Shown here piece after piece: positions 35,278 through 49,353 of a DNA stretch of 64,000 bases (the stretch's first letter is position 1; each line of letters opens with the position of its first letter). The notes under the pieces were generated by a model. The model was not told the DNA's origin. It did not search any database and saw only the letters and a program-made list of their open reading frames with translations. Location of the stretch: contig CBDCWP010000044.1 in assembly GCA_965223505.1 (NCBI GenBank), positions 32,001-96,000 of the forward strand. Direction: 5' to 3'. Source of the stretch: Planctomycetota bacterium (GTDB lineage Bacteria; Planctomycetota; PLA2; JAEUHO01). The position numbers were made by a program, and so were the translations under genes.

Positions 35278-35859
35278 CTACTTCTGCAGTCCTTGCCCGG
35301 TCATGGTGCCGCCTTCGCTGCTGCGCAGCGGCGGAGCCGCACCCTCGAAGACGACCTGCTGGATGCCGATGTCCACCAGCATGTCCAGCACGCGCACGAT
35401 GTCGCCGTGCGGAACCGCGCCGCCGTCCGGCGGCATCGCGGCGATCTCGCCCTTCACTTCGGGGCTGCGCTGCTGCGCCGCGAACTTCGCGTCGACGACC
35501 TGCTTGATCTGCCCGAACAGGTTGTCGTACAGCGCGAGCCGCGCTTCCGAACCCTTTGCATCCTTCGGCCACGGGCCCTTCGGCAGGTTGAACGTGTGGG
35601 TGTTGTCGATGCGGATCTTCGTGTACGCCTCGAGCTCCTTGCCCTTCTCCTTGCGGAAGAGCTTCACCTTGATCTTCTCGAATTCCGGCGGGAAGGAGGG
35701 CGTGGGGGCCAGGCCGCGGTCCTTCGGCAGCTGGCTGTCGATGCGTCGGTCCACCTCTTTGAACTTCAGGCTGAGCAGGAAGAAGATGATGAGCTGGAAC
35801 ACGATGTCGATCATCGGCGTCATGTTCATTTCGGTGTCGTCGCCTTGCGCGATGTCCAT
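35278..35859 (-). CDS. ExbD/TolR family protein (second copy)
   Basis: AGGAG RBS; MNMTPMIDIVFQLIIFFLL; VPHGDIVRVLD. Confidence 0.88.
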   Translation of the reverse strand: MDIAQGDDTEMNMTPMIDIVFQLIIFFLLSLKFKEVDRRIDSQLPKDRGLAPTPSFPPEFEKIKVKLFRKEKGKELEAYTKIRIDNTHTFNLPKGPWPKDAKGSEARLALYDNLFGQIKQVVDAKFAAQQRSPEVKGEIAAMPPDGGAVPHGDIVRVLDMLVDIGIQQVVFEGAAPPLRSSEGGTMTGQGLQK

Positions 35860-41700: not shown

Positions 41701-42563
41701 GTCTCGACCGTGGTGTCGAACCACTGCAGCGACTGGCGGTACCAGCTGAGTTGATCTTCCTCGCGCTGGGCGCACTTCGCGAGCTCCCAAAGCGCCTGTC
41801 CGTAGATGTCGGATGCGTACGCCGCGACGGTCTCGCCGTCGAAGAACCCGATGAACTCGTCCAGGTCGTTGTTGACCGACTTCAGCGCGTTCTCCGCCTG
41901 CGCGCTGCACGGATCGTGCACGAGCGCCGCGTAGAACTTGCAGACCACGAAGTAGTACTGCGCGATCTGCTGCATCGCGGTCGCCTTCTCGTCGTCCCAG
42001 CCGCGGCGCAGGGTGTCGAAGTAGCTGATGGCGCCCTCGACCATGTCGCGCGCGTCCGCTTGCACCTGCGTCGCGTTCGTTCCGCGCTCCTCCATCATCT
42101 CGGGCTCGCTCATGAGCCGGCTCTGCGCCCACTGGACGAACTCGAGGCGCGTCGTTCCGATCAGGTTCTTCGCCTCGTTGACGCGCGGGTGATCGGCGTT
42201 CTTGCGAACGAACGTCTCCATGTCCTCGACCGCGCTCTTGAAGAGCTTCACGACCTGCTCGTACGGAACGTCCGGGTTCGCGCGGGCGGCGATCGCGGCG
42301 TTGCGCGTGAGATCCGCGAGGCCGTACTTGGCGAGGTCCTTCTCGGACTCGCTGCGGTTCCGGTCGTCGAGCATGCGCTGGTAGACCTTGCGCGCGAGGT
42401 CGAACCACGACGAGTCGGCGGTCTGACGGCCCTTGGCGGCCAGCTGTTGGCCGAACTCGAAGTCGTCACTGCCCGCGCAGGCGGACGGCGTGCCGAAGGC
42501 GAGCAAGAGGAGAGAGAGGAATACCGTGGGGAGAACCAGACGTCGTACGCGACGAGTCAACAT
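38763..42563 (-). CDS. Very large exported TPR-like/coiled-coil protein (1266 aa)
   Basis: Signal peptide; TPR-like units (LMGVADSQFSKGRYTDAIGAYQRV; AEKYLDKLVAKYPT); long coiled-coil-like segment. Confidence 0.75.
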   Translation of the reverse strand: MLTRRVRRLVLPTVFLSLLLLAFGTPSACAGSDDFEFGQQLAAKGRQTADSSWFDLARKVYQRMLDDRNRSESEKDLAKYGLADLTRNAAIAARANPDVPYEQVVKLFKSAVEDMETFVRKNADHPRVNEAKNLIGTTRLEFVQWAQSRLMSEPEMMEERGTNATQVQADARDMVEGAISYFDTLRRGWDDEKATAMQQIAQYYFVVCKFYAALVHDPCSAQAENALKSVNNDLDEFIGFFDGETVAAYASDIYGQALWELAKCAQREEDQLSWYRQSLQWFDTTVETQHVDGDTLRIIARGYNHIGQLCLSAGRVGGENFLRTGSTYLKKMMVRHPTIGDTDDGIHALLQWARLEDAQDRTNEAIKIASQAASIASEKGKGYLEKKANDLLEKFVTRGGTTNGGSGQSAEVLMGVADSQFSKGRYTDAIGAYQRVIVAMTDSTDDLMKFGVPSWRKIAICYKNLGDLLSASLALEPIHEAWIDGRIPRTTNDENDENLVMAGNLRRQAMGLLDQLYVQTDAKIYLDRFKAVQDSFPSDYRGHPSEQESEIQAAIANRKQAIKERNEGKSGWKSTLSKAESGFRRVAKDPEARLQNEAFVYIIRCALARKDWRGMIKESDAALKYWDGPVAQAKFKQSESDWAKRARKARGQTIYWKSLALVELEQWDAVLDLLKTFAAEHSDLDPLPYLSGALGNQVQAYVGKGDIENAEKYLDKLVAKYPTYNKLHKITFGLARYFESKYSEIETNLKASLAKIQGPPDERAKGLLYRLKVAEKDENRVAERLVDLNGSRRKKQELIDTYDRAMASGGDTKIGKTERDEAEKDLKGRPDFKDEKNPNEQLIRDGIIKTIARLNKELRELTAKRETLEAELIEERKKIDAYKLEMYPHLVKAAEKYYLWYKTMVALKESLTPSHLYKFAYMYFYATELKPEVRENWERAKELNEAYLKLPGITAEDRSKALGKLGKIYSHLASTAQDEKTARELNLKAVELLQGAVANIPENNDLLVGMLAGDFVVLPWTDPIEKRSFRFPMPRVSDVAGFRKAVKELGSPGGTPIPKFESARADRTYKEALGRFKSEMAKEDDQTLKRTVAAFKNAGFDAVFYRIHGDYRRSFRMALAQSYAESGREGDDVKAINLCGTLLRGLMQVDDDSEEFWETQVIRLNAMLNAAERARGASPGAAKADAKTMLEYAGKILRGLKSRYPRLGESERPGTIADLETALKRLNDMIQPKLVLDLRKMPKDMAADAENDEQPEKPKPNGDGDE

Positions 42564-46866: not shown

Positions 46867-46953
46867 GTAGGGGCAGCCCTTGTGGCTGCCCAACCGCACA
46901 TGCGTTGAGACCTGATCGACGAGCGCGTGGGCGACCACGAGGGTCGTCCCTAC
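46867..46953. repeat. REP pair between convergent genes
   Basis: GTAGGGGCAGCCCTTGTGGCTGCCC 46867-46891 and GGGCGACCACGAGGGTCGTCCCTAC 46929-46953. Confidence 0.9.
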
Positions 46954-47582
46954 TGCGGGCGCAGGACGGCGACCCACAGCTCGCGGCGGTACGCGGCAAG
47001 GCCGCGTGCGTCCACCATCCGCAGGCCCGCGGCCGCAGCCTCCTCACGTAACTCCTTTTTCGACAAGGTGTAACGGTCCCCGCGCCGCCTGGTGAACAGG
47101 CGCCGGATGCCCCGGCTCAGGTTGTGGAAGCTCACCGGGTGGTGGAAGGACAGCAGCAGCGTGCCCTGGGTCAGGGCCCGCAGGCCGCGAAGCACGCGCT
47201 CGCGGTGCGCCGCGTCCGGGAGGTGATGGAGGAACCGGAAGCAGACCACCAGGTCGGCGGGCGTGGCATCGGCGGGCACGGCTTCGAGGTCGATCGTCTC
47301 CAGCCCCAAAAAATGGGGCTTTCCGGACAGGCGGCGCTCGGCCTCGGCGCGCATCGCCGGCGACAGATCTGCGGCGCGGGTGGGAATCCCGCGTCCCATC
47401 AGCTGCTCCGCAATGCGTCCCGTGCCGCAGGGCACGTCCAGTGCGCTGCCGGGCGGCTGCGGCAGGTCGTCGAGCAGGCGGGAGAGCAGGGTCCATTCTT
47501 CGGCGTCGCGTTTGGCGCTGCGCGCGGCGTAAGCCCGGGCCTTGCCCGGTTCGTCGTACTTGGTGCGGCCGGCGTAGGACAT
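46950..47582 (-). CDS. Class I SAM-dependent methyltransferase
   Basis: LDVPCGTGR, ADLSPAM, DLVVCFRFLHH. Confidence 0.88.
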   Translation of the reverse strand: MSYAGRTKYDEPGKARAYAARSAKRDAEEWTLLSRLLDDLPQPPGSALDVPCGTGRIAEQLMGRGIPTRAADLSPAMRAEAERRLSGKPHFLGLETIDLEAVPADATPADLVVCFRFLHHLPDAAHRERVLRGLRALTQGTLLLSFHHPVSFHNLSRGIRRLFTRRRGDRYTLSKKELREEAAAAGLRMVDARGLAAYRRELWVAVLRPQ

Positions 47583-47680
47583 CGGCCCGAATGTAGGGGA
47601 TGGGATAGGAGGTGGCAGCCCTGATCCTCGGTCGTGCCAAGTGTGTTTACGGCATCAGCCGAGGAAGGAACTGCCACCCC

Positions 47681-48727
47681 ATGACTGCGTACCACGTCGG
47701 AATCGACCTGCACAAGAGTGTCGCCCAAATCTGCGTCCGTGATGCGAAGGGCGAGATCGAAGAGGAGCGGCGGTGGCGCCTGCCGGATCGAAAGGCGGCC
47801 GCGGCGCTGGTTGCGTTTCTTGGCACCTACGGCGGCGGGCGCTTCGCGGTGGAAGCGTTGGGCTGCAACCGCTGGTTCGTGCTGGCCTGCCGCGAAGCGG
47901 GTTTGGAGATGCTTGTGGTGGACGCCACGAAGCTCGATCTGAAGAAGCAGGGCAAGAAGACGGATCGACGCGACGCCCAGGAGATCTCGCGCCGGCTGTA
48001 CCTTGGCGACCTGGACCGCTACGCACTGACCTACTTCGCCACCGAAGCCGAGTTCGGCCAGCGCAAGGTGTTGCGGGTTCGGCATCAGCTCGTTCAGCAT
48101 CGAACCAGCGTGCTGGCGCACATCCGCGGCATGCTCAACGCGTACCTGCTGCGAGCGCCGGTGACGCAGCTGTACACCAAGCGCGGGATCCAGTGGCTTC
48201 GCGAGCAGCGACTGGGTGATGAGAACCAGGATCTGGCGCTGCAGTCGCTGGTGGATGTCGTTGCGGCTCTGCAGGAGCGCATCGAGAAGCTCACCGCTCG
48301 AATCCGCGAGTTGGCCGAGCAGGACGAAGTCTCAGGCTGGATCGTTCGGAATCTGCCACAGGCGGGAGCCCAGACGGCTCTGACGCTTCAAGCTGAGTTG
48401 GGTGACGCAACCCGCTTCCGCGGTGCTCGACAGATCTCGAGCTATGGGGGTGTCGTTCCACGCGTTTCGGCCTCGGCGGATCGAGCGCACCACGGCCGCA
48501 TGACCAAACGCGGAAACGCCGAGTTGCGTTGGGTGCTGGGGCAATGGGCGGTTCGGTTGCTGGCCTTCGACCCAGAGGTGAAGGCGTGGGCACAGCCGAT
48601 GCTCAGGCGCATGCACCGCAACAAGGTTCGAATGGCGCTTGCACGCCGGCTACTGGTGGGCGTGTGGGTGATGTTCTCGCGTGGCGAGGTGTTCTCGCTG
48701 CGTCGGTGCCTAGGCCAGGCTGCCTGA
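47681..48727 (+). CDS. IS110 family transposase/recombinase
   Basis: DEDD RuvC-like GIDLHK, VEA, KTDRRDA; Tnp domain AELGDATRF, YGGVVPRVSAS, GRMTKRGN..LR, ALARRL. Confidence 0.96.
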   Translation: MTAYHVGIDLHKSVAQICVRDAKGEIEEERRWRLPDRKAAAALVAFLGTYGGGRFAVEALGCNRWFVLACREAGLEMLVVDATKLDLKKQGKKTDRRDAQEISRRLYLGDLDRYALTYFATEAEFGQRKVLRVRHQLVQHRTSVLAHIRGMLNAYLLRAPVTQLYTKRGIQWLREQRLGDENQDLALQSLVDVVAALQERIEKLTARIRELAEQDEVSGWIVRNLPQAGAQTALTLQAELGDATRFRGARQISSYGGVVPRVSASADRAHHGRMTKRGNAELRWVLGQWAVRLLAFDPEVKAWAQPMLRRMHRNKVRMALARRLLVGVWVMFSRGEVFSLRRCLGQAA

Positions 48728-48960
48728 GCGAACGCACTGAGAGAGAGGAAGCGAAACCAGGAATCGGACACCAACGGGCGCGTACTCCGGCGGGCCGCTG
48801 AGCGCATCAGCTCGTGTAGGCGATTGAGAGGCGCGTCCGACTCCCCCTCATGACGCCGCCCGAATAGGCGAGCTCGAAAACCCGAGTGGACGGATCCGAC
48901 CCTGGCGACGCGGAAAGGACGCACGGCCGACAGAAAAGGGCTTGCCATTCCCTAAACCGG
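48728..48960 (+). ncRNA. Candidate bridge/seek RNA in the IS110 right non-coding end
   Basis: 233-nt non-coding end; stem-internal loop-stem at 48809-48874 whose loop strands match the insertion target. Confidence 0.55.
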
Positions 48961-49051
48961 CGATCCTTGTGGTCGCCCAACTCGGCGTCTTGGGCAGCCA
49001 CAAGGGGCTGCCCCTACCTACGGCTTGGGCAGCCACAAGGGCTGCCCCTAC
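48961..49051. repeat. Right half of the interrupted REP plus two inverted REP copies
   Basis: 48961-48978; GGGCAGCCACAAGG(G)GCTGCCCCTAC at 48992-49017 and 49027-49051. Confidence 0.9.
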
Positions 49052-49055
49052 ACCG

Positions 49056-49353
49056 TCACGTGGACGTGGACGTGAACGTGAACCTGCACGACACCTGGAT
49101 CGCTCAGCGGTTCCACGCATACGACCCGTCCGCGCCGACCGCTGCGCCCACTGGCGTCCATGTCTGCGCGGGATCGCGATCGGGATCGGGATCGGGTGCG
49201 GGGGGGCCGCGCCGTGAAGGGTCCTCACGTGAACGTGGACGTGGACGTGAACCTGCACGACACCTGGATCGCTCAGCCGTTCCATGCACTCGGCCCGTCG
49301 GCGCCGACCGCGGTGCCCACTGGCGTCCCTGCGCGGGATCGGGATCGGGATCG
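49056..49353. repeat. Two copies of a ~135-bp unit bounded by hexamer microsatellites
   Basis: Units start at 49056 and 49225: (CGTGRA)x4, conserved core CCTGCACGACACCTGGATCGCTCAGC...GCCCACTGGCGTCC, then (GGGATC)x3-4. Confidence 0.88.

Follow-up and report, generated by a model that had tools for sequence, protein, structure and literature searches.

A divergent IS1111-type insertion sequence in a REP repeat probably encodes a two-module guide RNA 3' of its recombinase gene

The non-coding stretch 48728-48960 runs from the stop codon of a recombinase gene to a REP repeat and raises the question of whether it encodes a guide RNA and, if so, which of its bases read the insertion site. A sequence-only reading had proposed that this 233-nt region holds the bridge RNA of an IS1111-type element, located 3' of the recombinase gene, and that an internal loop of that RNA reads out a REP target. 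We analyzed the region together with the rest of the window (the whole 64-kb stretch of DNA under study, with a G+C content of 67.9%) and with relatives from other genomes. A homologous RNA with covarying helices was found in the relatives, which agrees with the proposed type and location of the RNA. As a whole, the locus is probably an IS1111-type insertion sequence sitting in a REP repeat and carrying a two-module guide RNA at its 3' end.

An IS110/IS1111-family insertion sequence of 1.36 kb occupies positions 47600-48958, interrupts one REP repeat, and has a GG core at both junctions. About a dozen REP copies are present in the window, with the form GTAGGGGC-RR-CCC-loop-GG-YY-GCCCAA. Uninterrupted copies have GTA followed by four G; the element is therefore inserted at the GG core, one copy of which stands on either side of it. 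On the left, TGTAGG and GG are followed by the element from 47600, and on the right, AAACC (to 48958) is followed by GG, CGATCC, and the remaining REP palindrome. REP repeats cluster around the element in both orientations (46867-46953 and 48960-49051), with two copies upstream and, downstream, the interrupted copy and two more. For annotation of this genome, the element explains the 1.36-kb interruption of the REP. BLAST of the element against the 64-kb window found no second copy. The parts of the element and its target site, apart from the guide RNA, are as follows.

47590..47597, plus strand: left target, the head of the interrupted REP, ending in TGTAGG (47592-97) (from the sequence and the REP consensus of the window copies)
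47598..47599, plus strand: core dinucleotide GG, left copy (from the sequence)
47600..47680, plus strand: left end, 81 nt, with the sub-terminal inverted repeat at 47606-47621, the -10-like hexamer GATAGG at 47604-09, and the 5' arm of a helix at 47611-18 (from the alignment with relatives)
47681..48727, plus strand: recombinase gene, 348 aa (from Pfam, invariant residues, and the family profile)
48903..48958, plus strand: rest of the right end, with the sub-terminal inverted repeat at 48938-54, the -35-like hexamer TTGCCA at 48942-47, and the tip AAACC at 48954-58 (from the sequence and the alignment)
48959..48960, plus strand: core dinucleotide GG, right copy (from the sequence)
48961..48980, plus strand: right target, the palindromic body of the interrupted REP (CGATCC...GTCGCCCAA) (from the sequence)

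The layout of the element is that of the IS1111 group as described in PMC11187229 and PMC11208160. The left end measures 81 nt and the right end 231 nt, and the long non-coding part lies 3' of the gene, a trait of this group. Read directly, the sub-terminal inverted repeats (47606-21 and 48938-54) match at 13 of 17 positions with one gap. Such repeats in the IS1111 group span 7-17 bp, usually 11-13, and are near perfect; the repeat of the window element is less perfect than this published norm, and that of its relatives is better. The extensions beyond the repeats are 6 bp on the left (ATGGGA) and 4 bp on the right (AACC) when GG is left out, or 8/4 or 6/6 depending on how GG is assigned. These values are near, and not identical to, the rule given for the group in PMC11187229, namely a left extension of 7 (or 6) bp and a right one of 3 bp.

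The recombinase open reading frame begins with the ATG at 47681, its stop codon ends at 48727, and the frame is intact. At 348 aa, the product falls within the 330-350 aa given for IS1111-group transposases, for which relatedness to IS1111-type transposases along the whole protein is a further mark. Two Pfam domains were identified, DEDD_Tnp_IS110 (PF01548; E 5e-11) and Transposase_20 (PF02371; E 2.8e-19). Residues D9, E58, D95, D98, and S265 are invariant in 25 relatives, and the four acidic residues align with the GID, EA, and TD..DA motifs of IS621. Bridge recombinases have a conserved C-terminal serine in a G--P----S motif, and the corresponding stretch here, GVVPRVSAS (S265), aligns with the P..ESG motif of IS621, the residue after the serine being A and not G. 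A profile of the recombinase family matched the IS621 transposase (E 1e-16) and the ISCro4 transposase (8e-15), and IS621 matched the single recombinase sequence in the C-terminal region only (E 2e-5). The closest named protein found was that of ISHvo10, with 33% identity over 97% of the query, and the IS5075 and IS4321 transposases were 24% identical over 96% of the recombinase length. Judged by these sequence features, the protein is a DEDD (RuvC-like) plus Transposase_20 recombinase of the IS110 family.

A protein search returned 566 relatives at E <= 1e-20, the best of them 79% identical and many others 60-70% identical. Nearly all were encoded on contigs roughly as long as a single insertion sequence. 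The clade thus comprises at least 566 database proteins at this threshold, none with a specific IS name in the listed sources. One genome per species was scanned with a 25-protein alignment (A1), which yielded 70 loci. The loci L001 to L024 encode proteins 44-56% identical to the window recombinase and come from metagenome bins (MAGs) labelled Planctomycetota, Myxococcota, Gemmatimonadota, Krumholzibacteria, Anaerolineales, and others. The non-coding regions of 22 relatives, with 48-56% protein identity and from at least 10 bacterial groups by MAG label, could be aligned with the window region over the 300 nt past the stop codon. L004, whose contig ends inside the gene, and L023, whose gene is broken early, were omitted from this RNA alignment. 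A set of 20 distinct RNAs (A2) was then obtained by dropping L010 and L024, which have the same RNA as L009, and L015, which has the same RNA as L014; these three loci were counted as separate insertions in the flank tests. The right ends of L001, L020, and L022 were not located by the motif rule, and these loci are left out of the right-end and right-flank tests. The left junctions of L007 and L024 are missing from the left-junction counts.

The core found in the window is shared by most relatives. At the left junction, GG was found in 19 of 21 readable loci and GA in the other two (L018 and L022); at the right junction, GG was found in 16 of 19, with GC in L005 and L007 and GA in L018. A short core shared by both ends and insertion at a specific site and in a specific orientation are thus seen here as GG at both junctions within a REP and at the equal position in relatives, the window itself offering a single insertion of this exact element. 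The right flanks of L005 and L007 share GC ATT-T/A-T-T/C-CAC, with GC at the right core position, and the two core copies of L005 differ (GG on the left, GC on the right).

The alignment of the non-coding regions is a conserved scaffold broken by short variable segments. Run unaided on the 20 RNAs, RNAalifold predicted three helices, P2, P2b, and P3, with compensatory changes in 10 of 14 predicted pairs. The helices beyond these three were added by eye before the pair test. The putative guide RNA and its parts, including the guide strands discussed below, are these.

48762..48902, plus strand: conserved guide RNA (bridge/seekRNA) scaffold, about 140 nt (from the 3' non-coding alignment, covariation, the covariance model, and the single-sequence fold)
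48764-68/48895-99, plus strand: P1, the closing stem (from covariation)
48771-73/48887-89, plus strand: P1b (from covariation)
48775..48839, plus strand: predicted target-binding domain, made of P2/P2b (48775-83 and 48785-87 with 48828-39), an internal loop, and the P3 cap (from RNAalifold and pair counts)
48792..48799, plus strand: proposed right-target guide GGGCCGCU, the 5' strand of the target loop, complementing the top strand from the core rightwards (from its position by homology)
48800-03/48810-13, plus strand: P3 hairpin (from RNAalifold)
48814..48822, plus strand: left-target guide (G)UGUAGG with an invariant CG after it, on the target loop's 3' strand (6/6 identical to the left flank; permutation test in the relatives)
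48840..48851, plus strand: donor-loop 5' strand (ACUCCCCCUCAU), which would read the element's left end (complementarity 4.95/8 to own versus 4.71 to foreign left ends)
48852..48875, plus strand: P5 hairpin with two bulges, 48852-60 with 48867-75 (91.3% of cells paired; both-side changes in 4 of 8 pairs)
48876..48886, plus strand: 3' strand of the donor loop, GAAAACC CG AGU, in which AAACC (48878-82) equals the right tip (from the match to tips in the relatives)

In the 20 homologous RNAs, 84.8% of the 585 cells of this fold are paired, both-side changes occur in 20 of 32 pairs, and compensatory changes are present in five helices. None of 500 shuffles reached the fold in any of five measures. 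When the partners were moved by 1-3 columns, pairing was 29-45%. The minimum-energy fold of 48762-48902 alone gives P1, P2, P3, and P5. A covariance model built on the 20 RNAs gave 48758-48912 of the window a score of 114 bits, which lies mid-range for the family. When the window and the 70 loci were searched with this model, the RNA was detected in the window and in 22 relatives only, 19 of them from the training alignment and the other three (L010, L015, and L024) with RNAs identical to trained ones; no RNA was found in L023, with its broken gene, or in L025 to L070, and no second copy was found in the window. Three minus-strand hits in the window, 42069-42194 (16.8 bits, E 0.035), 35584-35645, and 1972-2033, were rejected as noise, the first of them looking like coding sequence. 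Folding and covariance models had both been named earlier as checks. The covariance model recognized the RNA. The folding energy was no better than that of shuffles (z of +0.88 for the whole 233-nt region, where the fold was uninformative, and -0.21 for 48762-48902). A scan of 47400-49300 against Rfam 15 at E <= 10 matched no family and returned two chance matches to microRNAs only. These comparisons point, with good confidence, to a 3' non-coding end that encodes an IS1111-type guide RNA with two modules held together by a closing stem. The two loops look like duplicated modules, each consisting of guide, hairpin, guide, and CG.

The target loop is enclosed by P2/P2b and P3, and its two strands are variable segments of the alignment. 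The word TGTAGG (48815-20), earlier singled out as a target guide, is indeed identical to the hexamer that precedes the GG core at the left junction (47592-97). It occurs once in the region, against 0.022 expected, and was present in 2.2% of the 5000 mononucleotide shuffles of the 233-nt region by which chance levels were set. The word stands as a guide for the left flank of the REP (6/6), on the 3' strand of the loop and not on the 5' strand to which it had been assigned. In fixed columns, the left-guide strand of the relatives matched the left flank of its own locus at 4.43 of 6 positions, against 1.65 for foreign flanks, and the total over class representatives was 45/66, against a permutation mean of 20.0 and with 0 of 20000 permutations reaching it. 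The misses in fixed columns were L006 with 1/6, where there is a one-base insertion, L022 with 2/6, and L001 and L003 with 3/6 each.

In the relatives, the strand facing it tracks the right flank. In a test free of offset, applied alike to own and foreign flanks, the right-guide strand complemented its own right flank at 6.42 of 8 positions, against 4.07 for foreign flanks (0/20000 permutations). Covariation of the loop strands with their target sites, which the sequence-only reading had named as a check, is thus seen across homologs on both flanks. The offset-free test replaced a fixed-column test that was weak (5.26 of 9 for own versus 4.34 for foreign flanks) and that broke down in the L006/L009 group owing to the displacement of its guide within the MAFFT columns. 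The register of the guide beside P3 varies, being shifted by one base in L005, L007, and L018 and including a spacer in the L006/L009 group. Complementarity is 8/8 in L021 (ACTTGCGC against GCGCAAGT) and in L006, L009, L010, and L024 (CAGCTGAC against GTCAGCTG for L006/L009), and it is 7/8 in L002, L003, L005, and L018.

For the window element, the most likely partner of the TGTAGG guide, by alignment with these relatives, is GGGCCGCU (48792-99). Against its own site it would form five Watson-Crick pairs and two G.U pairs with one mismatch; counted over 9 nt from 48791, there are five Watson-Crick pairs, or 7/9 with G.U included. Its score in the offset-free test was 5/8, which 44% of foreign flanks equalled. 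Because the window guide is weak against its own site, the assignment rests on position by homology. The same GGGCCGCU is one mismatch away from each of the two common REP variants, which might widen the range of usable REP targets. With both guides taken jointly, the real site scores 13/16, and 5 of the 10682 GG positions in the window score that high. The REP at 49027-49051 (minus strand) fits the two guides better than the occupied site, at 14/16 versus 13/16, and the nearby REPs, this one above all, are potential landing sites.

The donor loop consists of two single-stranded segments, one running from P2 to P5 and the other from P5 to P1b. On the latter, its 3' strand, the five bases before the second invariant CG equal the right tip of the same locus in 14 of 20 loci and match it at 4/5 in the other six (0/20000 class-level permutations). 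For the last three of these bases the agreement is 27 of 27 letters, over nine class representatives with seven triplets (1/20000 permutations). AAACC was observed three times in the window region (48754-58, 48878-82, and the tip at 48954-58), against 0.35 expected. The copies near the loop had been put forward as matches to the donor; this stands for 48878-82, which matches the right end of the element at 48954-58, and falls for 48754-58, which lies outside the conserved RNA. Comparison of the donor 5' strand with the left end of the same locus gave no signal (4.95-6.21 versus 4.71-5.94 of 8 for foreign left ends, with or without wobble or a one-base bulge), in a sample whose ten distinct left tips give low power. 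Three of the four guide strands can be placed from the comparative data.

The pattern at the core is the same in both loops. On the strand that mimics the top strand, the base facing the first core base is always C, and agreement with the core is limited to the second base; CG is present in both loops for GG cores, and the complementary strand covers the core with C and a wobble U. In L018, where the core is GA at both junctions, each loop has CA in place of CG, and this single event fits the second core base being read by the CG-bearing strands.

From published relatives we infer how the element would move, that is, by excision, transcription from the junction, pairing, and strand exchange. 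It would insert in a fixed orientation at the GG between the GTAGG head and the palindromic body of a REP. The target-loop 3' strand UGUAGG, having the sequence of the left flank, would pair with the bottom strand, and the 5' strand GGGCCGCU would pair with the top strand, starting at the core and extending into the arm of the REP. In the donor loop, AAACC of the 3' strand has the sequence of the right tip, and the 5' strand would read the left tip. By analogy with ISEc11, ISPa11, and IS621, excision would produce a circle. Its abutted ends would form a promoter, with the -35 from the right end, a 17-bp spacer, and the -10 from the left end. The junction transcript would run through the recombinase gene into the RNA. 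Within the complex of RNA and recombinase, the target loop would then pair with a REP and the donor loop with the joined ends, and the DEDD and serine residues would carry out strand exchange at GG.

When the ends were joined, a -35-like TTGAC[ACT] and a -10-like [TGC]ATA[AG][AG] stood exactly 17 bp apart in 15 of the 17 loci with both ends. The exceptions were L018, where the spacing is 15 bp, and L003, in which the pattern did not pick up the -10. The hexamers across the window junction, TTGCCA (48942-47) and GATAGG (47604-09), are poorer than those of most relatives, which have TTGACA or TTGACT and TATAGG, TATAGA, or TATAAG. A promoter scan of the linear element found no sigma-70-like promoter.

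A separate helix in the left end pairs 47611-47618, the inner portion of the left inverted repeat, with 47671-47678 (GGTGGCAG with CTGCCACC), and its 3' arm ends 2 nt before the ATG. Equivalent 5'UTR helices of 8-11 bp, with different sequences, are present in 14 of 18 loci. By folding back, the helix may hide the ribosome site in read-through transcripts.

The RNA gene could be real by descent and this copy a fossil that is no longer mobile, which we regard as possible though on balance unlikely. The copy may be inactive given that it is the only one in the 64-kb window, that its junction-promoter hexamers are poorer than in most relatives, and that its right-target guide is mismatched to its own site; the best relative in the databases is, in addition, just 79% identical. 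However, the reading frame is intact with all catalytic residues present, both ends and both core copies are in place, and the RNA scores in the middle of the family range. Moreover, zero to two mismatches between guide and target are usual in natural IS110 elements according to PMC11208160.

The reading of the locus as an IS1111-type element with a 3' guide RNA has close parallels in described systems. ISPa11, an IS1111-family element of Pseudomonas aeruginosa, targets REP sequences, and by its description in PMC11187229 it shares layout, kind of target, and strand order with the window element. The REP family and the host differ, and the ISPa11 RNA is experimentally supported whereas the window RNA is predicted by comparison of sequences; the window RNA also differs from the ISPa11 seekRNA in lying outside every Rfam model. 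ISPpu9 and ISPpu10 of Pseudomonas putida are IS110-family elements that insert at a fixed position in REPs, often in REP clusters, with a shared junction dinucleotide (PMC12288879), and the window element likewise sits in a REP cluster. In the account of ISPpu9 in PMC12288879, the bridge RNA precedes the tnp mRNA in the transcript, the core is AG, and the minicircles have no hybrid promoter, whereas in the window family the RNA is 3' of the gene, the core is GG, and a -35, 17 bp, and -10 are conserved across the joined ends.

The seekRNA of ISEc11 (IS1111 family) is also located 3' and has a long form of 154 nt and a short form of 82 nt, and its two target-matching stretches have been reprogrammed both naturally and experimentally, as reported in PMC11187229. 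The window RNA, at about 140 nt, is close in size to the long form. As described in the same paper, IS1111 seekRNAs carry the complement of the top strand 5' of the match to the bottom strand, as in the window RNA and in reverse of the IS110 order. That account of ISEc11 stresses donor flanks that match the target rather than a separate donor loop, whereas in the window family a distinct loop strand tracks the right tip. The IS621 bridge RNA, in PMC11208160, has two loops, each of which reads both strands around a core dinucleotide, and the DEDD and serine residues of its recombinase align with those of the window protein. It differs from the window element in that the RNA is 5' of the gene, the order of the loop strands is reversed, and the core is CT. 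IS4321 and IS5075 are given as IS1111-family members in the title of a reference of PMC11208160; their transposases and that of ISHvo10 are the closest named ones, yet their identity to the window protein is very low.

The sequence-only reading had seen here a possibly new reprogrammable RNA-guided recombinase. The novelty is that of a divergent member, since RNA-guided targeting by IS1111 elements, REP-targeting members, the 3' RNA, and reprogramming have all been published (PMC11187229; PMC11208160; PMC12288879). A literature search by general terms found nothing on the recombinase clade, which may still be listed in a supplementary catalogue. On its sequence, the element is a new and divergent member of the IS110/IS1111 family that leaves the known working picture unchanged. 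We think it doubtful that the clade forms an architectural class of its own among bridge recombinases, with a distinct mode of core recognition, an idea suggested by the <=33% identity to any named IS found and by an RNA without an Rfam family. RNA-guided IS110/IS1111 recombinases are under development for programmable DNA insertion, excision, and inversion. From the window comes a further clade, divergent and GC-rich, that combines a compact enzyme (348 aa) with a guide RNA some 140 nt long. This clade could supply new orthologues and be used to test how donor and target are read by RNAs of the IS1111 type.

A different fold of the region had been proposed, in which the stems AGCTCG/CGAGCT and TGAGAGG/CCCCTCA close an internal loop whose 5' and 3' guides would be TGTAGG and GCCGCCC, respectively. 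Every string is present in the window (AGCTCG at 48809-14, TGTAGG at 48815-20, TGAGAGG at 48825-31, CCCCTCA at 48844-50, GCCGCCC at 48855-61, and CGAGCT at 48869-74). Both stems are complementary there, CCCCTCA pairing with TGAGAGG except for one A.C, and GCCGCCC complements the REP word GGGCGAC at 6/7. However, in the 20 RNAs the 13 stem pairs form in 48.6% of cells, a level also reached by 385 of 500 shuffles, and their covariation falls short of the shuffle mean. The half-stems also fall in separate features of the conserved fold, AGCTCG being the 3' half of P3, CGAGCT the 3' half of P5, TGAGAGG part of the 3' strand of P2/P2b, and CCCCTCA part of the donor loop. GCCGCCC itself is structural and no guide, belonging to the 5' side of P5, a covarying helix. 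Its resemblance to the REP is what chance would give, since the reverse complement of GGGCGAC with at most one mismatch was observed once, against 0.57 expected, and was reached in 44% of shuffles, and the aligned segment in the relatives varies as a self-complementary hairpin unrelated to the flanks. We therefore consider this fold very improbable. The strings are real and the stems are not conserved across homologs. Among the matches, TGTAGG and one AAACC are meaningful.

That the region holds no functional RNA, being 3' untranslated or REP-derived spacer in which TGTAGG occurs by chance, is hardly credible: the folding energies, the lack of an Rfam match, and the lack of a sigma-70-like promoter in the linear element agree with it, but the non-coding sequence is conserved across MAGs of many bacterial groups, five helices carry compensatory changes, and the guide strands of the relatives track their own flanks.

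Two further observations concern repeats. In L018, a near-identical stretch of 10-11 nt (ACGC-G-TTCATC) is found on both flanks, on the left before 1501 and on the right after about 2719, and an additional right-end-like stretch lies downstream; the flank repeat may reflect a tandem or nested insertion. In the window, the intergenic DNA after the REPs contains a direct repeat of 107 nt (49056-49162 and 49225-49331), the copies of which are 90% identical and start 169 nt apart. Each copy is followed by a short tandem run of the GGGATC type (49164-49200 and 49329-49353).
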